64,000 nt of DNA from NCBI GenBank assembly GCA_964016885.1, contig OZ024741.1, forward strand, positions 61,008,001 to 61,072,000, in the 5' to 3' direction. Origin of the DNA: Eledone cirrhosa. Taxonomy: Eukaryota. Positions 2,972 through 64,000 of this stretch are shown here, in pieces. Position 1 is the stretch's first letter. Every line of letters starts with the position of its first letter. Made by a program: the position numbers and the translations under genes. Below the pieces are notes generated by a model. That model saw only the letters and a list, made by a program, of their open reading frames with translations, searched no databases and had not been told where the DNA came from.

Positions 2972-3096
2972 TTGTTTTGAAGATGGTGAGCGGAGTTTGA
3001 AATTTAGGAAATAGAAGCTTTCGCGTATTTTGACTAAATTTAGTTAGCCTGAGATAGTGGGGTTTAAGACCCTCTAAAATAGAAAAGGATGAATAT

Positions 3097-3167
3097 TCAC
3101 GTACATGGGAGTCGAACCCACATCTTTTGTTATCCAGACTATTGTGCTATCGTAACACCAATACATA
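3097..3167 (-). repeat. Degenerate tRNA-like sequence within a repeat (2985-3190) homologous to the 63.2-63.8 kb unit
   Basis: Reverse complement has tggtgttacgatagcac...ctggata...gtgggTTCGACTcccat; flanks match 63221-63477. Confidence 0.65.
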
Positions 3168-3239
3168 ACCTATCCTTTTCCATTCAAATTAGGATGTGGG
3201 TTCGACACTCAAGTAAGGCAATACTCCGTTATCAAGGAC

Positions 3240-17506: not shown

Positions 17507-18558
17507 ATGAAGATCTTACAGGCTTATGGAATCCCCAAGAAGACAGTGGACCTGATATCACTGTTCTACACCAACACCAAAGCCCAAGTTATTACACCTG
17601 ATGGGATGACAGAGTTCTTTGAGATACTGGCTGGAGTGCTCCAGGGAGATACATTGGCTCCCTATCTTTTTATCATCGTAGTGGACTATTGTATGCGCCT
17701 TGCACTGGAGAAACTCCAGGACTCTGGCTTTACTGTAGCACCGGCTCCAAGCAGGAGAGTTAAGGCGAAAAAGATATCAGATGCTGAATTTGCCGACGAC
17801 ACAGTTTTGGTGACAAATACAGTGAAGGAGGCAGAGGATTTGATGCAGGAGGTTGAGACTGTGTCGATGAGTGTGGGGCTGGGAATGAATGAGACTAAAA
17901 CAAAATATCTGGTAGAGAATGTTGATAAGCCAGAGGAGATCACTAATGTAACCAGGAAGCAGCTAGAATTGGTTGAAGACTTCTTGTATTTGGGAGCAAA
18001 GATTGGGAATACGGAAGATGATGTGGTTGAGAGGAAGAGCAAAGCTTGGGCGGCGTGCCACAGCTTGAGATCGATGTGGAAGTCAGACCTTCGTAAAGAC
18101 CTTAAAATCCGCCTCTTCATTGCTGTAGTGGAGTCTGTGCTGCTGTACGGGTCTGAGACTTGGACACTGACCAAGAAACTCACTCAGATGGTGGATGGGT
18201 GCTACACGAGAATGCTGAGGATGGTTCTGAACATTAATCAGTATTCACTGAGGATAAAAACTCAGAGCTGTATGGGAGCCTCCCAAAAGTCAGCTCAAAA
18301 GTGACGCAGAGGAGACTGAGGTTAGCTGGACATGCTCACCGACATCCAGAGTTGACATTGCACTCAGTGCTCCTGTGGGAGCCCCTACATGGACACACTG
18401 GAAGAGGAAGACCAAGGTTAACGTATGTTGATGCCCTAAGTACAGGCACTGGTCTGTTGGAGACGCAGAACATGGTAGCGATAATGAGGGAGAGAGACTG
18501 GTGCAGAGAACTCGTCCATGGATCTCGGGAATTTTACCCGCCCTAGAATAGAATAGAA
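17507..18558 (+). mobile_element. RTE-clade LINE, RT domain to 3' end
   Basis: [49 protein letters not shown]; one frameshift near 18260; (TAGAA)3 tail. Confidence 0.92.
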
Positions 18559-21240: not shown

Positions 21241-21672
21241 ACGTACATACATATATGTATACAGACGTACAGTAGTATGTATATATATACATACTTGCAC
21301 ACATATATATATATATGTACATATGGGTTTACCGAACATTTATTATAATATTCGGTTTGTTTGTAAACAAACAGCCCGAATTAAGCCGTACAGTGTTCGG
21401 CAACCATCGTTTCCCTTTTGTTCAACACAGACAAAGGAACGATTAACTAGTTTCAAGCTTATTAGCTATCGTCAAACGTTCAATCATCTGACAAGAAGGT
21501 ATACGATGCTGACGATAGCTAATAAGCTTGAAACTAGTTCATCGTTCCTTTGTCAGTGTTGAACAAAAGAGCAACGATGGTTGCCGAACACTGTACGGCT
21601 TAATTCGGGCTGTTTGTTTACAAACAAACCGAACATTATAATAACTGTTCGGTAAACCCATACGTACATATA
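20955..21672. mobile_element. Three ~170-bp HHR modules in +/-/+ orientation
   Basis: 20955-21130 (+), 21312-21486 (-), 21503-21672 (+), near-identical; diverged tail also at 1-80. Confidence 0.9.
21503..21545 (+). ncRNA. Minimal type I hammerhead ribozyme, canonical
   Basis: acgatg-CTGACGA-t-agct(aata)agct-t-GAAA-ctag-TT-catcgt; perfect 6-bp stem I; siblings at 20960-21004 (+) and 21436-21481 (-) have TTGACGA. Confidence 0.9.
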
Positions 21673-43244: not shown

Positions 43245-43424
43245 TGGATTGGCAGTATCAGTAGAGGGTCGGACGCCATGCTTTCCAGCATAGTTACGTC
43301 CCTTTACAATCTGAGTTCAAATCCCGCCGAGGTTGACTTTGCCTTTCATCCTTACGGGGTCGATAAAATAAAGTACCAGTAATGCACTGGGTATTTGCTG
43401 GCCTTGTGCCTAAAGTAGAAACCA
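43245..43424 (+). mobile_element. tRNA-derived SINE, family A
   Basis: Full-length match to other copies; aatatttagtgg duplicated at 43236-43247 and 43424-43435. Confidence 0.88.
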
Positions 43425-43517
43425 ATATTTAGTGGGCTAGAGAGTTAGCAGAGCGTAAGCACGTGGGAAAGTAAAAAATCGGAGAATAGACCGTTAAAAC
43501 ATGTTTATTTAAAATAT

Positions 43518-43556
43518 CACCTACGTACGTTTCGCCCAGTTGGGCTTCTCAAGGGC
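43518..43556 (-). ncRNA. Variant hammerhead motif in PLE 3' UTR
   Basis: cc-TTGAGAA-gccca(ac)tgggc-GAAA-cgtacg-TA-gg, followed by aataaa. Confidence 0.6.
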
Positions 43557-43847
43557 ATAAATAATCACAAGTGTTCCTTATATTGCTCGGAAAGAGTTTA
43601 GGGGGATAAATCTACATCAAGGTTCATTGCTCGCAAAAATAACTTGTTTTGATTTTGCAGCAGGTCAAGGGAGGTAACTCTGGCCGGTGTTAGGGCAGTC
43701 TTTCCCGGACAAATTTTTTTTTCTTTTTGCCGCATCCGTTTGTCTGAGGCTGGGTCTGGTATGCAAGGATTTTTTCCTGGGTGTTATTTTGCAGCGCCTG
43801 CCCGCCGGGCTGTTAAGACTTGTTGCAGGGAGATCCAGTGTACTATT

Positions 43848-44710
43848 TCACTCTTCATCCTTAACCCATCTGAAGAAGGATATTTTTAAGCGATGTGTAC
43901 AACTTATCGCTGTTTCAGCTCTGCTGTTGATGAGCTCGTGGGGTGCAGTTATGATGTGGTAGAGCTCCATGAGGCAAAGATCGCATTTCTTCTTGAAGTT
44001 GTACGGTGCAGCCCTGCCGACAATCTCCCAGTGCGTGGAGAAGCTGATGTTTAAGTCCTTTAGTGATGTGATGTAGTCCGCGAGCGAAGTGGAGTGCCTT
44101 AGTTTTCTATTTGTGAAAGAGTGGAGATGTGTTCGAAACCTAATTTTGAACGGGCCGGAGGTGGCCCCTATATAATGTTTAACGCTATTGTGGCTAGTAA
44201 TAGTGCATCTATATATAACCCTATCAGTCAAGCAGTATCCTCTAAGGGGGCAGCGTCCTCTGTCGCGGCAGTTGCAATTTCTGTCGCGGTTCCGTCTATT
44301 TCCCACGGTAAGGCTATCATTGTTGCTGCCTACGTTGTTACCTACGCTACCGCAGCTGTCGTTAGCACAATTACAACCCACAGCACGCGGGGTGGTGCGA
44401 TTGTTATTCCGCACGTCATGTTCTGCATGTTCCCCAGTCATTTGGCGGTTATTCTGGTTGCGTCTGCGGATGCCGTTGCCAACACTATTGGATGCTGCCA
44501 GGGAGTTGTTAAGGCTGATATAGTTATTGTCAGGTGTAGCTGCGTCTTTGTCGAGGTGCTGTATCTTGGTGATCTTACTGTGGTTCGTTGTTCCTATGAT
44601 GTCTGCTAGGTTAGGAGTAGTAGAGAAGGATATTTTATATTGTTCCTATTAAGAATTTTTCTATACCTATGGTTGGGCGGGAAGTTCTTCTCTAAGGCTT
44701 CGAAGAACAT
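43848..44710 (-). pseudogene. 5'-truncated PLE: RT-EN linker plus GIY-YIG endonuclease (ORF 43848-44441 intact)
   Basis: CNCRDRGRCPLRGYCL-VIY-YIG-FKIRFRTH-STSL-CDLCLME-NSRAE; upstream NFPPNHRYRKILNRNNIK(fs)ISFSTTPNL linker. Confidence 0.92.
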
Positions 44711-44736
44711 CCGGTGAACTAACTGTTGTGTAACCA

Positions 44737-44796
<60 letters not shown>

Positions 44797-45839
44797 AATA
44801 TATCTACTAACATAAGCGCACAGATGTACGCTAATGCCAGCAAATACACAGGTTATGTCATAGTACCTAGGTGGTTCAATGCAGGAGAATGCAGAACAAT
44901 AATATAAAAGACGTAAAATAAGAAAATAAAAAAAAATAAAAAAATGTTTTCAAAAAAATTAACTTACTTAAATTTTCACTCCAACTAATTAGTTTCTGCA
45001 ATGCGATAAAGACAGTTACGTAATGAACTGTTGAGAATTTCATTGCGTCATCATGGAGGTCATTCTCAGCCGAGTCTCCAGGCGATGCGCGGACACTGGG
45101 GACTCATATAAAAATAATAATAATTCGGTAAATGGAACAGCTATCGAGGATTGGATTCCAGCTACTGAAAATTCTCACTGCCACTGATCATATGGCCGAT
45201 TCTAAAGAATCAATCACGTGACACAGAGGCTAGTCAGTAGGAATGGGATGGTAAGATGACAGGCGCCTACTAACACCCCCCCAAAAAAAATTTAGAAGTG
45301 GTTTTGGCAGGTTTGCTCGACAAATCAGTGATTTGGAGATAAATATAGATAATTTAATATATCTACTAACATAAGCGCACAGATGTACGCTAATGCCACC
45401 AAATACACAGGTTATGTCATAGTACCTAGGTGGTTCAATGCAGGAGAATGCAGAACAATAATATAAAAGACGTAAAATAAGAACATTTTTTTTTTAATTT
45501 TTAAAAAAATTTTTTAAAAAATTTTTTTATTTTAAATTATTTTAAATTATCTATATTTATCTCCAAATCACTGATTTGTCGAGCAAACCTGCCAAAACCA
45601 CTTCTAAATTTTTTTCTGGGGGTGTTAGTAGGCGCCTGTCATCTTACCATCCCATTCCTACTGACTAGCCTCTGTGTCACGTGATTGATTCTTTAGAATC
45701 GGCCATATGATCAGTGGCAGTGAGAATTTTCAGTAGCTGGAATCCAGTCCTCGATAGCTGTTCCATTTACCGAATTATTATTATTTTTATATGAGTCCCC
45801 AGTGTCCGCGCATCGCCTGGAGACTCGGCTGAGAATGAC

Positions 45840-45919
45840 CTCCCTGATGACGCAATGAAATTCTCAACAGTTCATTACGTAACTGTCTTTATCCCATTGC
45901 AGAAACTAATTAGTTGGAG
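45840..45919 (+). ncRNA. Type I hammerhead ribozyme, long stem II
   Basis: ctcc-CTGATGA-c-gcaatg...cattgc-a-GAAA-ctaattag-TT-ggag. Confidence 0.85.
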
Positions 45920-45954
45920 TGAAAATTTAAGTAAGTTAATTTTTTTGAAAATTT

Positions 45955-46240
45955 TTTTTATTTTTTATTTTTTATTTTTTACTTTTTACTTTTTATTTTT
46001 TATTTTTTATTTTTTATTTTTTATTTTTTATTTTTTATTTTTTATTTTTTATTTTTTATTTTTTATTTTTTATTTTTTATTTTTTATTTTTTATTTTTTA
46101 TTTTTTATTTTTTATTTTTTATTTTTTATTTTTTATTTTTTATTTTTTATTTTTTATTTTTTATTTTTTATTTTTTATTTTTTATTTTTTATTTTTTATT
46201 TTTTATTTTTTATTTTTTATTTTTTATTTTTTATTTTTTA
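45955..46240 (+). repeat. (TTTTTTA)n expansion inside one array unit
   Basis: About 40 copies of a 7-mer; the equivalent tract is short in the other units. Confidence 0.95.
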
Positions 46241-46667
46241 AATTTTCTTATTTTACGTCTTTTATATTATTGTTCTGCATTCTCCTGCATTGAACCACCT
46301 AGGTACTATGACATAACCTGTGTATTTGGTGGCATTAGCGTACATCTGTGCGCTTATGTTAGTAGATATATTAAATTATCTATATTTATCTCCAAATCAC
46401 TGATTTGTCGAGCAAACCTGCCAAAACCACTTCTAAATTTTTTGGGGGGGTGTTAGTAGGCGCCTGTCATCTTACCATCCCATTCCTACTGACTAGCCTC
46501 TGTGTCACGTGATTGATTCTTTAGAATCGGCCATATGATCAGTGGCAGTGAGAATTTTCAGTAGCTGGAATCCAGTCCTCGATAGCTGTTCCATTTACCG
46601 AATTATTATTATTTTTATATGAGTCCCCAGTGTCCGCGCATCGCCTGGAGACTCGGCTGAGAATGAC

Positions 46668-46747
46668 CTCCCTGATGACGCCATGAAATTCTCAACAGTT
46701 CATTACGTAACTGTCTTTATCCCATTGCAGAAACTAATTAGTTGGAG
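46668..46747 (+). ncRNA. Second tandem hammerhead of the array
   Basis: Same as 45840-45919 with one stem II mismatch; antisense copy 44979-45058 has core ATGATGA. Confidence 0.8.
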
Positions 46748-46809
46748 TGAAAATTTAAGTAAGTTAATTCTTTTGAAAAAAATTTTTTTTTTTATTTTCT
46801 TATTTTACG

Positions 46810-48481: not shown

Positions 48482-50533
48482 TCATCCCTTGAATCGCAAG
48501 AATGTTTTGCAAATTTTGAAGGTGCCAGCTATCGCAGCCATTTGTAGACTATGAATTAGGGAGCTGCACTTTTTGTCCGCAAATCCAAGTTCAGTCATAC
48601 TTTGGTCCAAGCGGGTTGGTATATTAGCCGTAGTTCCAATAATGATGGGTATGAAGCTAAAGGTGTATCTTGGATACTGGATTTGTAAACTCCCCATCAA
48701 TGGTCCGTAGATGTCCTCCTTCTCCTGTATTTTTCTGACAACGTTTACATCAAGTGGGCAGCTGATCTCCACAACAGAACATGTTTTCAATGTGTGGTCC
48801 CAAACAACAATATCAGGCCGGTTGTGCTTTAATTTGGTGGCAGTTTTTATTTTCAGATTCCACCAATATTCCTTAGTGCCATCTGTCTCAATATATTCTT
48901 CCTCGTTTGTTGTTAATTTTGTTTTCCGAAGTGCGTTCCAGATGGTTCTAGCTATCCCATCGTGTCTCATGGGGAGGTAGTAGCGAGATGACATTCTTTC
49001 GCAGCTGGCAACCATGTGGCTTACATCCTCGATCTTTGTTTTACATAGCCTACATTTATTGTCAGCTGCTGGCCCTCCTCTTTTGTGCAGCAGATATTTG
49101 GTAGGGAGTTCTTGTTCCTGTATTGCATAGAGATATCCCTCAAGGTGTGATATCATAAACTTGTCGGAACTCCATGCCAGGCTTTTTGAGTGGTTTATCC
49201 CCTCTATGGTCTGTGTTTTACGCCTCAAGTATCCATGCACAACTTTTTCTGTAAATTGGTCAATTTTTTTATCTTGTTTGAACATTGAATAGGATCTTCC
49301 GATTTCTCTGGGTGAGAGATTTGTATCAGGCTTTATTCCATATCCCTCCTCCAGATCAGTCGCTATTCTAATGATATTTTTTTTTTCATGCTCATAAACC
49401 TGGGCAAGATGGTTGCCAACCTTTTTCCTCTGTTGAAGGTGTTGCTTCAGTGTTACTATCCGGGTCTCATATGTTGTTAATATTGATTTTAGACCCCGGC
49501 CACCTTCCTTGCGTGAGAAGTATAGCCTATCCACATCACCATTGATGTTAAAGTTCACAGTAACACTGAGAAGTTTTCGAGTTCTAACATCCATCTCACT
49601 TAGTTCTTGCAATGACCAGTTCAGCAGGCCAAATGTTGGCGTTAGAATTGGCACAGCATAAGTATTGTGGGCAATGTATTTGTTGTACGCTGACAGTTCT
49701 GATGACCATATTTTCTTTACTCTTCTGAGGTATTCAGTTCTGGTTCTCTCCTTATTTATGGGTCCATCATATCTGACATTCTCATCCTGTCCAAGATATC
49801 TGTAGTTGTCACCTGACTGTAGAGGTTGTATTGTCAGGCCGTTCATCTCTAGATTTCTAGAGGAGGGCACAGCTCTTCCACGTTTTACTGCCAAATATGC
49901 ACACTTGGACTCACCAAATTTCATTTTGATGTCGGTTGAAAATCGTGTAATGAGGTCCAATTGTTTCTTGATGTCATTGATATTTGGCCCATACAACTTC
50001 AGGTCGTCAACAAAGAAAAGATGGGAGATACTTCTGGGCCCACTTCTTTGTCCACCTTGTTTCCTGAGTAGGTAAGATAGTGGATTAAGTGAGAGAACGA
50101 AGAGTAGCACTGACAAGCTTTCACCCTGAAAGATGCCCTTCTGGTAATGTATCTTATCAGTCTTAACTTGCTCCTTCTCACCTCTAAGGATCAAATTGGT
50201 GTACCAGTTCTTGGTCAGGCGTTCAACAGCAGCTACCAATGGTTGTGGGACTTTAGCTAACTGTAAAGCCTTAATAGTCCACCCATGAGGTACACTATCA
50301 AATGCTTTTTGATAGTCCAGCCACACCACAGTCATGTTTCTGCGATTCTTTGTTGTTTTTTCCTGAATCATTTTGTTAGTTAGTAGGTGATCTATGCATC
50401 CCCACACCTCCCTCTTTCCACCAGCTTGCTCAGGTGTTATGATGTTGTTGGTATCACAGTGATCCTGTAAGAACAGGTTAAGGCACCCAGTATATAATTT
50501 ATACATGATGTTTTGGCAGGCTATTGGGCGGTA
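48482..50533 (-). CDS. R4/Dong-like non-LTR retrotransposon: RT, CCHC finger, restriction-like endonuclease (uninterrupted 674-aa ORF, N-terminally incomplete)
   Basis: YRPIAC, WLDYQKAFDSVPH, GIFQGESLS, HLFFVDD, CRLC..H...C, RHD, RPDIVVWD, EISCP; short 3' UTR running into (CATA)n at ~48340-48400. Confidence 0.92.
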   Translation of the reverse strand, partial: YRPIACQNIMYKLYTGCLNLFLQDHCDTNNIITPEQAGGKREVWGCIDHLLTNKMIQEKTTKNRRNMTVVWLDYQKAFDSVPHGWTIKALQLAKVPQPLVAAVERLTKNWYTNLILRGEKEQVKTDKIHYQKGIFQGESLSVLLFVLSLNPLSYLLRKQGGQRSGPRSISHLFFVDDLKLYGPNINDIKKQLDLITRFSTDIKMKFGESKCAYLAVKRGRAVPSSRNLEMNGLTIQPLQSGDNYRYLGQDENVRYDGPINKERTRTEYLRRVKKIWSSELSAYNKYIAHNTYAVPILTPTFGLLNWSLQELSEMDVRTRKLLSVTVNFNINGDVDRLYFSRKEGGRGLKSILTTYETRIVTLKQHLQQRKKVGNHLAQVYEHEKKNIIRIATDLEEGYGIKPDTNLSPREIGRSYSMFKQDKKIDQFTEKVVHGYLRRKTQTIEGINHSKSLAWSSDKFMISHLEGYLYAIQEQELPTKYLLHKRGGPAADNKCRLCKTKIEDVSHMVASCERMSSRYYLPMRHDGIARTIWNALRKTKLTTNEEEYIETDGTKEYWWNLKIKTATKLKHNRPDIVVWDHTLKTCSVVEISCPLDVNVVRKIQEKEDIYGPLMGSLQIQYPRYTFSFIPIIIGTTANIPTRLDQSMTELGFADKKCSSLIHSLQMAAIAGTFKICKTFLRFKG

Positions 50534-50587
50534 TAAGGGCTGTATTTGTAGTATCAGTCAATTCCGTTAGATGTATCAATTTACATC

Positions 50588-54194: not shown

Positions 54195-57100
54195 CCATTA
54201 ACGAGAGGAAGGCAACGACGACAACAGTGTCATTAACAACAACAACTCTACAATTAACGAGAGGAAGCCAACCCCAGCATCAGTGACTCACCACCAGCTA
54301 CTAGGTCCTATGACAAACTGCTCAGTTGCTCGCATGTGTGCGTGCTGAACTCTGGGTCTTTCCGCTGGTAACAACCCCTTGTTCCCCCCCCCCTTTTTTG
54401 TGTACAAACTCATTTATTTACTGCCATTCTACCTTCCTGTGTCTCCCCCTCCATGCAGCCCCTTTTCGCTCTCGTTTTCTGGCACCTCCATATATATAGG
54501 TGAGCTATGCTGCCCTCTTACCAGCACTTTCCCTTCCACCCACACACGCCAGCCACCCACCCCTGATGCCGCTCGGTGCCCCAATCCCCGGCCCCACGCC
54601 CCATCCCTCACCCCTCCAAATCGACACCTGAAGCACTTGCGGCACCACTAACAAACGGAAGAGGGGCCTGAACTGTTTGGGGTGCGGCTGCTTCCACCAC
54701 CTCACCTGCGTTGGCTTGACTCGTCGAGCTTCCAATGCCCTTGCAGCGTAGAGGTGCAGGAGCTGCTTCTTCCCCACGTCTTCCCAGCCACGGCCGTCTG
54801 GCACACCACCAGATGGGACAGCGAGCTTGCCTGACGCCCGAGCCTCGCTGGTCAACATCGCTCGGCTCAGGCGGCTCCGGAAGATCCCACTCAGGATCCC
54901 GAGAGCGGCACGGGTTCCGTTAGCCGATGCCCTCGCTTCTTCAATTGAGAGCGCTCTGGACTCCAATCGAGCCAGTTACTGGGAGCAGCTGTTCTATTTC
55001 GCCCCACTCGCCATCGGCCTCCCCAGATCTGGCGCTGACCGGGGCGGCCGGTCAACAGCAGCCTTCGTCAAGGCCAATGTCTCGTCATTTGGGCGCCTCA
55101 CACCCCACCCTCAGGTACCCCCTATCCTCCACCCCTGAGGCCAGCGCCAAGCGCTTGCGTGACCAGGTAAACGCAAAGCTTATCATGGGTGATGTCTCGG
55201 CCGCAGTCAGAGTTGTTGCCTTAGAGGACACTGTCCTTCAACCAACCGAGGAGGTCCTGGCTGCTCTGCGGCTCAAACACCCTGAGCCACCCACTAATCT
55301 CAGACCCATACCCCCACCCGACCCCACCTGCTCCTTATGGCTACTGATGCAGATATCATGTCCGCCATCAGGTCCTTCCCAGCTAGCAGCTGCGGAGGTG
55401 TTGATGGCCTCCGACCAGGCCACCTCAAAGAGTTGACATCCCCCCCCCCCTCTCCGCTGAGGCCGGGCGCCGCCTTCTGAGTGCGATTGTGGCACTCACC
55501 AATAGGCTCATTCATGGTGCCCTCGACCCTTATGCCCGAGGCCTCTTTTTTTGGCCAGCCTCACCGCTCTCGGGAAGAAAGAGGGTGGCATACGCCCATT
55601 GCTGTGGGCAATGTCTTCCGGATGCTGGCTGCCAAGGTGATCTGCAAGTCCGTCACACACGAACTGGGTGAGGAGTTTAGTCTGGTGCAACTGGGTGTCG
55701 GCGTGTCCGGTGGCTGTGAGGGAGCCGCTCATGCAATCAGGCAGTTATTCAGCAGCTGCCCATCGGTACCGGCATCCAGGGACTTCATGCACCTCATTGT
55801 CAAGCTTGACATGAGGAATGACTTTAACTCTTTACGCCGGGATCATCTGCTTGAGGCCTGCCTCAGCCGAGCCCCCTTTGTCTACCCGCTGGCCTGTCAT
55901 ATGAAGCCCCGAGAATGCTCCTAGCTGCTGATACGGTCATACCCTCGGCTACTGGGGTCCAACAGGGCGACCCTTTGGGACGCCTCCTGTTCGCCCTTGG
56001 TATTGACCACATCTCCCGGAGTATCACCGCCCCTCTCAACGTTTGGTATCTGGATGATGCTACGTTGGGCGGGCCCGTACGGACGGTCTGCCAAGACCTT
56101 CAATCGGTGATTCCTGCCCTGGCGGGAATTGGCCTCCAGGTCAACTCGGACAAGTCGGAGGTGGTGAACGTCAGCCTCGATTCTGCGAGCTTTGCAGCCT
56201 CCGTCTTGGACGTGCGGTCCATTCTCCGTCAAGTTCAGGTGACCCCCAAAATGGATGTACTCATCTTCGGGTCACCGATCCACCCGCCGGCCATCCGCTC
56301 CACCATCAGGTCCAGGCTTCAACAGCTCCAGACTCTCACGAGCCTACTGGGCTTGATTGACGACCACCCAGCTCTCTTTCTGCTGAGGAACTGCTACGCC
56401 ATGCCGAAGCTCCTCTATACACTCCGCACCGCTCCATGCTACACCCAGACATTTCTCCTCGCTGACCTCGATACTTATATCCGAGCAACAGCCGAGGGGA
56501 TATGCAACGTCAAGTTTGACGACTAGGGTGGCAACAGGCCACTTTACCGGTCAGGTATGGCGGCCTTGGCCTCCGGTCCCCGATCTCACTAGCTTTGCCG
56601 GCGTATTTTTCGTCGGTAACCTCGTGCCGCGTCCTCGTCAGCGGAGTTCTTCAAAACACAACAGAAACCTCTGTGTTCAGAGAACGTGAGGCCGCCTGTG
56701 AGACGTGGGACCGGCTGGGACTTAGCCCAGTAGACGTCTCTCCTCCTTCTCCCCCTGTTGACGTCAAGTCCCCCAACGCACTTGGGATGCCATCCAGTGC
56801 AGCCTGGCCTTAGACAGGCTCACGCTCCAGTTCGACCAGCACCGCCTTGCTTGTTTTCGTGCGGCCTCCAAACCCAACAGTGGTGCCTGGCACCATGCCC
56901 TGCCCTCCTTCGCCACTGGCATGCAGCTACACAACCATAGCCTGCGAATCGGCGTTTCCCTGAGGCTCGGCCTCCGGATCTGCCAGCCACACCAATGCCG
57001 CTGCGGTTCCACCGTGGACTCTTTCGGCCTGAACCCGCTTTCCTGTCTCCACAGTGCCTGTCCCATTCCACGCCATGCTGCCTTCAACGAGGTCATTAAG

Positions 57101-57630
57101 CATGACTTGGACGCTGCAGGCTTCCCTTGCCAGCTCGAGCCGGTGGGGCTGGATCGAGGGGACGGCAAAAGGCCAGATGGCATGACCATCTTCCCGTTCC
57201 GCGGTGGCAAACCACTCGTCTGAGATGCCACTTGCACCGACACTTTCTGAAGCGGCAACCTGGTGCAGTCTGCGACTGACCCACGTTCTGCTGCACGTCG
57301 GGCTGAGGGGGCCAAACTCCTCAAATACCGGTCGCTCTCCGACAGGTTTGCGGTCGTTCCCCTGGCAGTGGAGACTTCTGGTGTCCTCGGCCCAGGGCTA
57401 CCTCCTTACTCACCACCATAGGCGCTGAGCTGGCCAGCCGCAGGTGTGAGCACCGCGAGTTGGAGTAGCTTTTCCAGCGCGTCTCCCTTGCGTCCTCCGG
57501 GGAAACGCCTTCTCCATTCTGTCTGCCGGGGCTGTGGGTGGGCCCCATCGCGTACCAATACATTAGTTAAATACCATTCTTTCATCTGATACAACACAAT
57601 AAAGACTAAAGTGTTTAACAAAAAAAAAAA
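54195..57630 (+). mobile_element. Near full-length degenerate CRE-like non-LTR retrotransposon
   Basis: GC-rich; PIAVGNVFR, QLGVG, KLDMRNDFNSL, GVQQGDPLG, WYLDD, HQCRCG, RH..FN, KRPDG; aataaa and poly(A) at ~57598-57630; many stops and frameshifts. Confidence 0.88.
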
Positions 57631-58405: not shown

Positions 58406-59390
58406 TAGCAGCGTTGCCTGGTAGGTAAAATAATATCTGCTTTGATGAAAAGGTGTTGATCTTAGCGACTGCTTCTCGATGACTCATCTATGGCCACACA
58501 CAGGCCATGCGGGGGAGGGTGGTGATGACCTCTATCACTGAGAAACGCCTGTGACTGACGGAGGGGCATGCTGGGAAAGGGAAGTAATGACCTCTAACAC
58601 GAAGCCAAATTTCCTCACGCTACTTGATTGGAAACCGATCAATTCTCAAATACACAACTAAAAGCCTTTGATCAACTATAAGATGTGCAATGATAGGTTC
58701 TATCGTAGTATAAAAGTTGAACCAAATAAATTGATTTATGTGTAAGGTGGAGCCGAAGTTTCGAATTTGAACGAAATCGGTTGAAAAGTGTGGGAGCTAA
58801 AGCCGAAAAAACGGAAATTTGAGCGAAAAGGTGGTATTTTCGAATATTGAAGCGGCTGCCACGCCGTTCCTGAACAAATACTCTAAAATATAAAGCCATT
58901 TTAAGACGTGAAATAATAAGATCTAGCGTAGTGTAAAATTTGAACAAAGTAGGTTGATTAATGTGGAAGCTAGAGCCGAAAAAGTGGAAATTTGAGTCTA
59001 AAAGTGGTATTTTTGAATATTTAAGCGACTGCCACGCCGTCCCTGAACAACAAATGCAAAATATAACGCTATTACAGGATGTGCAATGATAAATTCTATT
59101 TTGCTTTAAATTTGAACGAAATCGGTGGCAAAATGTGGGAGCTAGAGTCCAAAATCTTATTTTTCGATACCTAAAAAAAGGTGACCCCCCCCCCCCCCTC
59201 TATCGATTTTTATCTGCAGAATGACCCCGGAATAAAAAAAAAACGATACGCTGATATATTAGAAAACACTCCCCGATGACTAATCTATGAGCCTGTAAAG
59301 TTTCATGAAAATCGGTCGTAAGATGTAGGCCCCTCTAGGTAATACACAGACACACAGACACACATACTTAATTTTATATATATATACAGA
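58405..59390 (-). mobile_element. Non-autonomous Helitron-like element with ~178-bp internal repeats
   Basis: Minus strand begins aTCtgtatatatataaaat plus (TGTC)-type microsatellite and ends gCTAGt; repeats at ~58760, 58938, 59108. Confidence 0.7.
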
Positions 59391-59483: not shown

Positions 59484-59792
59484 GAGAGAGAGAGAGTATA
59501 ATATATTTAAGGATCTATTTTGCTTTTTTTTTTCCTTTCTTTGATTCGTCAAAGTGGCATTATTGAAAAAATGAGAGGGACAATTCTTTTTAAAAGAGTT
59601 TTATAATGTATATAAAGTATATAAAGTTTAACAGGTTTCGATGTATTAGTAAAATCCATCTTATCAAATGTTGAGTATTACAATTAAAAAGAATTAATAA
59701 GAAGTAAAAATTAAGAATAAAAGATTTAAAATTAAGTGTTGAGGCAAGTTTTTTCATCTTCCTTGGTGTGTGTGTGTGTATGTGTGTACATA

Positions 59793-60120
59793 TATAGGGA
59801 AAAGAAATTGAAAATGCAACAGGGGTCTTTTAATAATATTAATTTTATTTACTTTATTGGTTCCACAGTTCTTATGCTGTTCAAAAGTAGAATTAAGATG
59901 GAGGGTTTGTCTCGCGTGTGATGTGAGATGTGAGACAAACCCTATCTCTATTTTACTTTTGAGAAACGCATAAGAACTGTGAAACCGGTTAAGTAAATGA
60001 ATAAATATTCTTAAAAGACTCCAGTTGCATTTTCAATTTCTTTTCCTTATACATTCACACGTGTAGGACATCTCATTATGTTCCTTTTTTTTTTTTTTAT
60101 AAAAAAAAATCATTTTCTTA
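59793..60120. mobile_element. Head-to-head pair of the 313-515 variant-HHR module
   Basis: 59793-59915 vs 59930-60051; plus arm tactt-TTGAGAAA-..-GAAA-ccgg-TT-aagta. Confidence 0.75.
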
Positions 60121-61939: not shown

Positions 61940-62081
61940 TAAACATTTTGACTAGACATGGTTGCATATGCAACTCTCAAGTCGGGAATAATGATGCAAT
62001 TCGATTTAAGCACTCAATATCATGTATTTTCTCTCTCTCTCTCTCTCTCTATCTATTTCTCTCTCTCTCCCTTTCTATCTT

Positions 62082-62140
<59 letters not shown>

Positions 62141-62176
62141 GGGGGGAGAGATAGAGAGAAAGAGAGAGAGAGATAG

Positions 62177-62244
<68 letters not shown>

Positions 62245-62325
62245 TGCATGATATTGAGTGCTTAAACCGAATTGCATCATTATTCCTGAGTTGAGAGTTG
62301 CAACCATGACTAGTCAACATGTTTA
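61940..62325. repeat. Large palindrome: ~90-bp unique arms around (CT)n(TA)n(AG)n
   Basis: 61940-62030 vs 62240-62325; the microsatellite core is itself symmetric. Confidence 0.88.
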
Positions 62326-62927: not shown

Positions 62928-63189
62928 AAGGACGATTTATGTCTTCATTACGTTTATTGAGTAGTGACGCGCGTTTCCCTATTGATCAGCTGAAGGTTGA
63001 ATCTGTATCAATCAAGCCCGACTCTGGAATCGAAAGCCCGTCTGACCTTTCCTGTCATTTCCACAGCAGAGATCCGACGAGCTCTTGATTCCCGAGTCGG
63101 GCTAGATCAATACAGATCGAAACTTCAGCTGATCAATAGCAAAACGCACGTCACTACTCAATAAACGTAATGAAGACATAACAAATCGT

Positions 63190-63193
<4 letters not shown>
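62928..63193. repeat. Head-to-head HHR-tail inverted repeat
   Basis: 62928-63031 vs 63087-63193; arm gctgatcaatag-(c)GAAA-cgcgcg-TC...aataaa; related single copy at 42483-42575. Confidence 0.85.
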
Positions 63194-63220
<27 letters not shown>

Positions 63221-63799
63221 AGCTTTCACCGTATTTTTTACTAAAGAAATTTGTTAGCCTGATAGTGGGGTTTAGAACCCTCAGAGAAATGGAAAAAGAT
63301 GAGTATTGACATACATGGGAGTCGTACCCACATCTTTGGTTATCCAGACCATTGTGCTACCATTACAGCAACACATCACCCATCTCCTTCCATTCAAATT
63401 AGAAGCTACATTCTTAGCAAGTAAATGACAAGTAAGTATGTTTTGAAACAGTGAGCGAGTTTGAAATTAGAAATATAAGCTTTCACCGTATTTTTGACTA
63501 AAGAAATGGAAAAGAGAAATGGAAAAAGATGAGTATTGACGTGTTGGTGTCATGGTAGCACAGTGGTCTGGATAACCAAAGATGTGGGTTCGACTCCCAT
63601 GTACGTCAATACTCATCTTTTTCTATTTCTCTGAGGGTTCTAAACCCCACTATCAGGCTAAAAAATGTCTTTAGTCAAAAATATGGTGAAAGCTTATATT
63701 TCTAATTTCAAACTCGCTTACTGTTTCAAAACATACTTACTTGTCATTTACTTGCTAAGAATGTAGCTTCTAATTTGAATGGAAGGAGATGGGTGATGT
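63221..63799. mobile_element. 257-bp tRNA-containing unit, tandem plus inverted, between (TA)n tracts
   Basis: agctttcaccgtatt recurs at 63221 and 63478; 63538-63799 is an inverted full unit. Confidence 0.85.
63538..63608 (+). tRNA. tRNA-like cloverleaf (loop CTGGATA, nominal anticodon GGA), probably repeat-borne rather than a decoding tRNA
   Basis: Acceptor gacgtgt/gtacgtc, D arm gtgt/gcac, anticodon arm tggt/acca, T arm gtggg-TTCGACT-cccat; T5 run about 10 nt downstream; second copy 63307-63377 (-). Confidence 0.5.
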
Positions 63800-64000
63800 A
63801 TATATATATGTGTGTGAATGTGTGTGTGTACAGGGGCCGTCTGTTGCAGCGAACGCGCCGATTAAAGAAATATCTCTGTATCAATTCTCTGTTCATATTT
63901 TGCCGTAACCCTGAAGTTGATTACTAAATCTTTACTGTATTTTACACCCAAAAATGTCGTCGGATACCTTCCGTCTTGATGTAAACCACCGGCCATAGAA

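Follow-up and report, generated by a model that had tools for sequence, protein, structure and literature searches.

Metazoan non-LTR retrozymes are AT-rich, non-coding tandem repeats with units of 150-450 bp. The accessible parts of two reports propose that Penelope-like elements (PLEs) mobilize them and that their RNA circles are closed by RtcB (PMC7229834; bioRxiv 10.64898/2026.07.22.740005). The family that we describe here, whose unit has a tRNA-like core, is similar in that its tandem units are small, AT-rich and non-coding, and in its proposed mobilization by a PLE and its predicted circles, closed by RtcB. However, in comparison with what those reports describe, the unit lacks a type I hammerhead, and the cutter would be a host protein that is recruited by the tRNA mimic; also, the unit has no similarity to the pLTR of the PLE that we examined. 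The dimer-dependent cleavage that we predict from a palindromic loop would parallel dimeric hammerheads, as far as the available text of PMC4209133 describes them.

PLEs and the non-autonomous elements derived from them, MRC1 among these, form partial tandems with an inverted and 5'-truncated arm, have one end that is longer than the other, and target microsatellites (PMC8557442, accessible part); our family shares these features. According to the same text, the 3' end of an MRC1-type element is generally similar to that of its autonomous family, whereas our unit does not resemble the one PLE family that we examined and carries a tRNA-like core.

Three other systems involve tRNAs, and we compare them as they appear in the accessible portions of the sources. 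TricRNAs (PMC6614914, PMC10485636, PMC13247085) have a BHB-like motif with a C-G proximal pair and a 3-nt bulge, are cut by TSEN, and become circles via RtcB, all of which we predict for our unit. But tricRNAs are by-products of real tRNA genes, while here the intron would be the whole mobile unit and there is no decoding tRNA. In the permuted tRNA genes of algae and archaea (PMC3978253), the splicing machinery also forms a circle, often at 37/38, which is the site predicted here. RNase P and RNase Z then open that circle to give a tRNA, whereas here the circle would persist and transpose; and the BHB of permuted genes forms from intron-derived flanks, whereas here it would form from the loops alone. 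Finally, tRNA-derived SINEs and SINE-derived satellites (PMC10702118) have a tRNA-like module, and one of our subfamilies (B) has likewise expanded into a satellite. Unlike those SINEs, our family has no head-body-tail order: copies are permuted and inverted, and the dispersed copies bear a PLE signature. We found no description of such an element in the literature that we searched; most subscription papers, the Repbase and Dfam entries, and the supplements of PMC13282606 and bioRxiv 10.64898/2026.07.22.740005 lie outside that search.

The window copy and its family

The window is a stretch of 64,000 nucleotides from Eledone cirrhosa (contig OZ024741.1, positions 61,008,001 to 61,072,000), and the copy under study lies near its right end (Table 1). 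The initial annotation described a tandem arm on the minus strand, with one unit partly deleted, followed by a unit on the plus strand, with both ends merging into (TA)n; this layout is present. In unit positions, the left arm comprises 66-94, a short duplication in place of about 95-125, then 126-257, and then 1-156, so that it is the upstream unit that is partly deleted. This arm ends at site A (unit position ~156), where GAAAGCT runs into TA; the right arm has an atypical 3' end position. As the initial annotation stated, the ends are permuted and there is no tail beyond (TA)n, but a target site duplication is not discernible inside (TA)n. The strand switch had been placed at the acceptor stem, and in this copy the microhomology there is TGACGT/ACGTCA. 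However, this pairing of acceptor strands is peculiar to the window copy, and the weight given to the acceptor stem is not supported: switches in other copies more often unite the arms near unit positions 61-66. The left arm begins at unit position 66, inside the zone where arms stop beside A58 (see below), which explains the switch at the acceptor stem. In the right-arm loop, the predicted TSEN cut falls between 63573 and 63574, by the rules in the accessible part of PMC6614914. The window copy does not have two full cores in tandem, and it is likely a dead end.

Table 1. Positions within the window of the tRNA-cored copies, their parts, and the candidate mobilizer
Feature	Positions	Strand	Basis or remark
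Left (TA)n target tract	63193..63220	no strand	sequence
Left arm, ~1.25 units	63221..63542	-	3' end (sense) at site A; 5' start at unit 66
Left-arm tRNA-like core	63307..63377	-	Rfam RF00005, 34.4 bits
Left-arm loop bases 32-35 (CUGG), self-complementary	63344..63347	-	covariation across subfamilies
Left-arm leader, purine-rich, predicted partner of the trailer below the acceptor stem	63378..63398	-	
Left-arm trailer, pyrimidine-rich, with T5 run, partner of the leader	63286..63306	-	
Inversion junction, where the acceptor strands share a 6-nt microhomology	63537..63542	no strand	sequence
Right arm, one full 257-bp unit	63538..63794	+	arm extends 5 nt more, to 63799
Right-arm tRNA-like core, loop CUGGAUA (non-decoding), variable arm of 4 nt	63538..63608	+	Rfam (46.6 bits, E 8.6e-7); ARAGORN, Ser(GGA)
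Right-arm anticodon loop	63568..63574	+	palindrome 32-35 at 63568-63571, then bases 36-38
Right-arm T-loop A58	63593..63593	+	stop point of copied arms lies just 3' of it
Right (TA)n target tract	63800..63809	no strand	sequence
Older tRNA-cored copy, ~81% identical	2973..3226	-	Rfam core at 3097-3167
Young PLE, 3' fragment, candidate mobilizer	43424..44714	-	GIY-YIG-type C-terminus; pLTR

The older copy, together with its flank, is duplicated 11 kb upstream in inverted orientation with 99% identity (L132, C2:60,999,491). Besides these elements, the window contains a young element at 44793-46775, in which inverted and repeated segments of ~500 bp (99% identical) surround (TTTTTTA)n and which is flanked by (TA)n. 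Short fold-back elements lie beside microsatellites at 21325-21658, 59790-60060, 61969-62302 and 62928-63192; these are possibly other two-armed passengers or MITEs. There are also reverse-transcriptase fragments (RVT_1) of three other non-LTR types, at 17507-18304, 48482-50557 (also zf-RVT) and 54900-57400, and a diverged tandem repeat of 173 bp (~2.5 units) at 58714-59154.

Across the 3.0-Gb genome, a 22-mer from the unit has 1,712 exact matches and another short motif has 1,135; the reversed motifs have none, so these matches are not due to chance. The repeat is dispersed, with a copy number well over a thousand. (A first look gave 2,897 candidate units, of which 40 were scored.) The tandem units are 257-290 bp and non-coding, and an array may hold from one to more than 500 of them. 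Arrays of 17-30 units bear the usual A and B ends (defined below), and three such arrays diverge internally by 12-15%. Subfamily B, with units of ~290 bp, also forms a satellite on contig C28, which runs from 19,440,624 to beyond 19,610,000, or at least 169 kb, with its right end not reached. Units were present in 11 of the 12 10-kb stretches that we fetched, and 338 of 347 loops read CTGGATA. Six satellite units that were printed carry variants that are absent from the aligned dispersed copies of B. This satellite could supply multimeric RNA, for subfamily B only.

The tRNA part is conserved between the majority sequences of five subfamilies: 4 of 72 columns differ, compared to 31 of 108 in the spacer. 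The tRNA fold is under selection, yet not for decoding. Decoding tRNAs have an invariant U33, a purine at position 37, and an isotype-consistent body. In the unit, subfamilies have U, C, G or A at position 33, position 37 is U in most subfamilies and otherwise A, and a Ser anticodon is combined with a variable arm of just 4 nt. The initial annotation had already noticed this odd combination, and ARAGORN calls Ser(GGA). Beyond the acceptor stem, the leader and trailer are predicted to form a further helix of ~18 bp, in which 87% of cells are paired across 33 rows that were hand-chosen from the subfamilies. An Rfam scan down to an E value of 10 found no ribozyme family at 4 loci, and neither a strict nor a relaxed search found a hammerhead core in 7 stretches (the window unit and six subfamilies); the relaxed search does recover the PLE control. 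This bears out the earlier statement that the unit has no convincing hammerhead.

We searched for the source tRNA with a pattern of our own choosing for the D arm and anticodon arm. Fourteen viral contigs matched, nine of which were called as tRNA-Trp, and the best is identical at 49 of 72 positions. A longer pattern had no match in metagenome or prokaryote collections, and phage BLAST gave nothing significant. A tRNA search of the genome that holds the window gave just 16 matches, with no Gln or Trp among them. In five viral contigs (L087, L089, L092, L094 and L096), tRNA-Trp-like genes combine the anticodon UCA with a long variable arm, inside which L089 and L092 have a second Trp-like arm. 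tRNA-Thr genes (AGT/TGT) are clustered at C1:243.65-243.68 Mb (L072, L074), apparently as a true tRNA gene cluster.

Insertion into (TA)n and stops at A58

Among 85 loci, 62 are head-to-head, 23 are single-armed, and none are tail-to-tail. At these loci, 107 of 147 outer ends that are 3' in the sense orientation adjoin (TA)n, compared to 7 of 23 outer 5' ends; the background at random flank positions is 10%. The 3' ends form two clusters: site A, at unit positions ~155-176, and site B, at ~195-220. We also picked 77 loci by a spacer motif, without any tRNA motif, from the first 100 listed matches on contig C1. In this sample, 51 loci are head-to-head and 52 are two-armed. The two-armed loci include 43 with one A and one B end, 1 with two A ends, and 8 with an end elsewhere, so 43 of the 44 classifiable loci have one end of each kind (p 2.6e-12). 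The 5' starts scatter around the unit or cluster 3' of A58, and there is no fixed 5' head at the tRNA. In loci sampled by tRNA motifs, the 5' ends looked uniform, with 18 of 147 lying close to where the tRNA begins, but this was an artifact of that sampling, and the spacer-motif sample overturned it.

The young PLE whose fragment lies in the window is very abundant, with 57,502 candidates in the genome. It has intact ORFs of 927 amino acids, pLTRs, and a variant hammerhead-like motif (near 43520-43555 in the window copy). From its motifs and the anatomy of the pLTRs, we take it to be a PLE of the Neptune type; the 927-aa ORF has no match in Pfam or in PDB. Its copies run into (TA)n at two sites; of 10 two-armed loci counted by hand, 8 have an end at each site. 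The PLE structure in the accessible part of PMC8557442 matches this anatomy. Both end sites are downstream of the hammerhead-like motif, at distances of ~60 and ~225 nt, as would be expected if the PLE itself were copied from a circle or from a template longer than one unit.

Because the insertions of the unit in (TA)n have two arms and two end sites, just as those of the PLE do, it is likely copied by the enzyme of such an element, and we are confident, short of certainty, that a PLE mobilizes the tRNA-cored family. BLAST found no similarity between the unit and the young PLE (one PLE family, 26 loci), so we infer the PLE partner from the shared insertion signature only. The initial annotation had suggested PLE-type insertion, and paired arms, (TA)n ends and the asymmetry of the two end sites are indeed common to the unit and the young PLE; the permuted ends, tandem copies and (TA)n flanks that it proposed to look for genome-wide are all found in dispersed copies. 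A PLE whose pLTR contains the unit, which it also proposed to look for, was not found in the one family examined. The family works like a non-LTR retrozyme but lacks the hammerhead that defines those elements, and it has the features of a PLE passenger: a partial tandem with an inverted 5'-truncated arm, a microsatellite target, and unequal ends.

To map where arms stop, we used arms resampled by the spacer motif, which are free of tRNA-motif bias. Of 100 arms that reach unit position 70, 63 stop at positions 55-70, just 3' of A58, and none of 37 arms stop at 40-54. Single-armed copies show the barrier as well (12 of 25). Subfamily F has no A58, while its T stem and microhomologies are unchanged, and just 3 of 28 of its arms stop there (p 8e-7; the sample comprised 38 arms from 23 loci). 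The arm stop is A58-dependent. The likely cause is m1A58, but loss of A58 also removes the 54-58 tertiary pair, and loss of this pair is an alternative cause. Read-through copies show no misincorporation at A58 (7 of 248 changed). Stops also cluster, more modestly, at unit positions 1-19 (7 of 34 arms), and 27 of 129 arms run beyond the 5' end of the tRNA. We did not count concordant stops in two arms as evidence, because junction trimming can produce concordance.

Rare variants are shared within an arm at 59 of 13,139 sites, across the arms of one locus at 24 of 12,445 sites, and between loci at 911 of 2,615,010 sites. Sharing is thus 13-fold more frequent within an arm, and 5.5-fold more frequent with the opposite arm, than between different loci, as expected of one repeated template. 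There are exceptions: two loci (L006 and L020) have units that lack their neighbors' variants. These unlike units, together with the arrays that diverge by 12-15%, make multimeric templates possible.

The self-complementary anticodon loop

Loop bases 32-35 are CUGG, CCGG, CGCG or CAUG, depending on the subfamily. All of these are self-complementary, and bases 36-38 vary. (We spotted the self-pairing before the loops were counted.) With the loop left open in the search, the first 100 of 1,604 genome matches had CTGG (54), CCGG (20), CGCG (13) or scattered sequences (13) by hand count, and older subfamilies add CCGG-CAA and CATG loops. When copies were assigned to subfamilies from the spacer alone, the majority loop was CTGG in A (58/71), B (12/13), DE (7/9) and W (29/46), CGCG in A' (23/28), CCGG in C (22/38) and F (25/57), and CATG in G (3/7, a thin sample of 7 copies in all). 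With all subfamilies pooled, bases 32-35 are self-complementary in 238 of 291 copies, compared to 5-18 in shifted windows. The 33:34 pair occurs as five pair types, and 32 of 33 hand-chosen rows are paired. In the old subfamily F, CpG decay yields CTGG (11) and CCAG (6); CTGG, which is compatible with wobble pairing, is the majority in some subfamilies, while CCAG is the majority in none. CTGT, which breaks the palindrome, is present in 6 of 46 W copies; at one locus (L022), both units have it. The palindrome covaries across subfamilies; the tree of copies lacks the resolution to put the loop changes in sequence. As a separate observation, a G-to-T change at position 35 recurs (L004, L005, L021, L022, L059, L061 and L066), mostly in single units of multi-unit insertions, and is a possible misincorporation hotspot.

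The covarying palindrome points to the tRNA splicing endonuclease (TSEN). In the predicted crosswise fold of a dimer, a 4-bp helix is closed by C32:G35' and has two 3-nt bulges (bases 36-38 on both strands). As far as the rules are given in the accessible text of PMC6614914 (a C-G proximal pair, a 3-nt bulge, 6 nt from C32 to the cut, and weak G-U pairs in mid-helix), this fold has the geometry of metazoan tricRNAs. Eukaryotic TSEN can cut a BHB in non-tRNA RNA (PMC10485636, in part), and an archaeal enzyme cut the BHB in a tandem transcript of an intron-containing tRNA in vitro (PMC3978253, in part). In 33 of 50 natural pairs of adjacent units, the crosswise fold has a lower energy than two cloverleaves formed locally, and for most pairs with intact CCGG or CGCG loops, the advantage is 6-7 kcal/mol. 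The unconstrained minimum is below both constrained folds in all 50 pairs, and the crosswise fold demands that long helices swap partners. The ensemble probability of C32:G35' in a nearest-neighbor model is at least 0.4 in only 11 of 50 pairs, and a typical CUGG dimer has 0.02. Genomic copies showed neither stops nor scars at loop positions 37/38.

A tRNA-like module is also found in a separate non-coding element of 1.8 kb, which is presumably Helentron-like (for example, G000:C28:112661035-112664107; L073-L083 and L254-L283). This element has fixed ends, internal inverted repeats, and a terminal hairpin that is flipped in some copies. Its module has 60 exact matches, of which 55 have CCGG in the loop (with G35 fixed by the search pattern), as CCGG-CAA, and the flanks are paired. 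As the module occurs singly, it is only suggestive for the loop palindrome.

A proposed life cycle and its alternatives

We think it fairly probable that this hammerhead-free family, likely copied by a PLE, follows a route in which a dimer mimics a pre-tRNA, with the unit as its intron, and in which TSEN is predicted to cut and RtcB to circularize. Two tandem units would fold as a single pre-tRNA whose intron is one whole unit, with the anticodon arms of the dimeric transcript pairing crosswise via bases 32-35. TSEN would cut at 37/38 in both units, leaving 5'-OH and 2',3'-cyclic phosphate ends, as a hammerhead does, and RtcB would ligate the excised unit into a circular template. The paired leader and trailer may block RNase P and RNase Z from opening the circle, and a lone circle, having no partner loop, would not be cut again. 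The PLE endonuclease would then open (TA)n, and both ends would prime on the RNA at the AU-rich sites A and B. Reverse transcription would travel around the circle, frequently halting beside A58 (probably as m1A58), and the two cDNAs would unite by microhomology. Against this route, the T5 run after each core would terminate most Pol III transcripts.

A different reading, which we consider unlikely but worth taking seriously, keeps the PLE and dispenses with both the TSEN cut and the circle: the passenger would be copied from linear, multimeric read-through RNA of multi-unit insertions or of the satellite. The tRNA fold would then serve stability or recruitment of the reverse transcriptase, and the palindromic loop would dimerize two RNAs for two-armed insertion. 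Such RNA dimers would suit two arms; suitable templates exist in the subfamily-B satellite and the arrays of 17-30 units, and some insertions contain unlike units. However, kissing between loops is usually on the anticodon, whereas this palindrome is at 32-35, with exactly three spare bases, which is the register of a bulge-helix-bulge. Furthermore, the satellite represents one subfamily, its six printed units differ from the aligned dispersed B copies, and 5' truncation would erode multimers unless they were regenerated. Less likely still, in our view quite improbable, is that Pol III transcribes the unit from its internal A and B boxes and that RNase P and RNase Z release monomers, which are then circularized or copied by template jumps. 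This reading is favored by the intact A and B boxes of most subfamilies and by the conservation of the tRNA part, and the stop cluster at unit positions 1-19 would fit it. The initial annotation had suggested these processing enzymes, but the helix of leader and trailer would hinder them, given their substrate requirements, and the loop palindrome, which this reading leaves unexplained, points to the splicing endonuclease instead. RNase P plus RNase Z would split the unit into a tRNA and a spacer, and some arms extend beyond the 5' end of the tRNA. The suggested role for a Pol III promoter is also weakened because subfamily F was amplified (337 exact spacer matches) despite the change of B-box base A58 to T.

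Spread at the DNA level, in which extrachromosomal circles, or break repair in fragile (TA)n, would have scattered a satellite or gene cluster of tRNA origin, is very unlikely. The large satellite does exist, and SINE-derived satellites are known (PMC10702118, in part). But the strict polarity, the A/B asymmetry in common with the PLE, and the A58-dependent stop indicate an RNA template and largely refute this explanation. We give almost no credence to an ordinary tRNA-derived SINE or functional tandem tRNA-Ser genes, even though ARAGORN calls tRNA-Ser(GGA) and a T-run follows the core: there is no fixed 5' head or tail, the variable arm is short, and positions 33 and 37 are unlike those of a decoding tRNA. 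Both forms of this idea are refuted by the head-to-head (TA)n anatomy, the A/B ends and the variable loop; an ordinary SINE and a conventional tRNA gene cluster are what the initial annotation had named as refuting its own reading. Its broader suggestion of a tRNA-based counterpart of a retrozyme holds for a ribozyme-free, retrozyme-like, permuted element with PLE-type insertion, but not for the processing enzymes or the emphasis on the acceptor stem.

Returning to the route via TSEN, we lean, if only slightly, towards regarding the family as a class of retroelements in which mimicry of a pre-tRNA takes the place of a self-cleaving ribozyme: the unit would excise itself as its own intron via TSEN, be closed by RtcB, be copied in rolling fashion by a PLE, and carry the footprint of m1A58. 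If so, this would be a transposon life cycle that is built upon the tRNA splicing pathway, and circles of the tricRNA type would have a selfish function. It would also mean that PLE passengers depend on having a circle with RtcB-type ends and not on a ribozyme. The A58-dependent stop suggests that genomic copies can record an RNA modification. And a 520-nt dimer, purified TSEN and the four compensatory variants that occur in nature bring within reach a test of the circular template that has long been proposed for PLEs and retrozymes.
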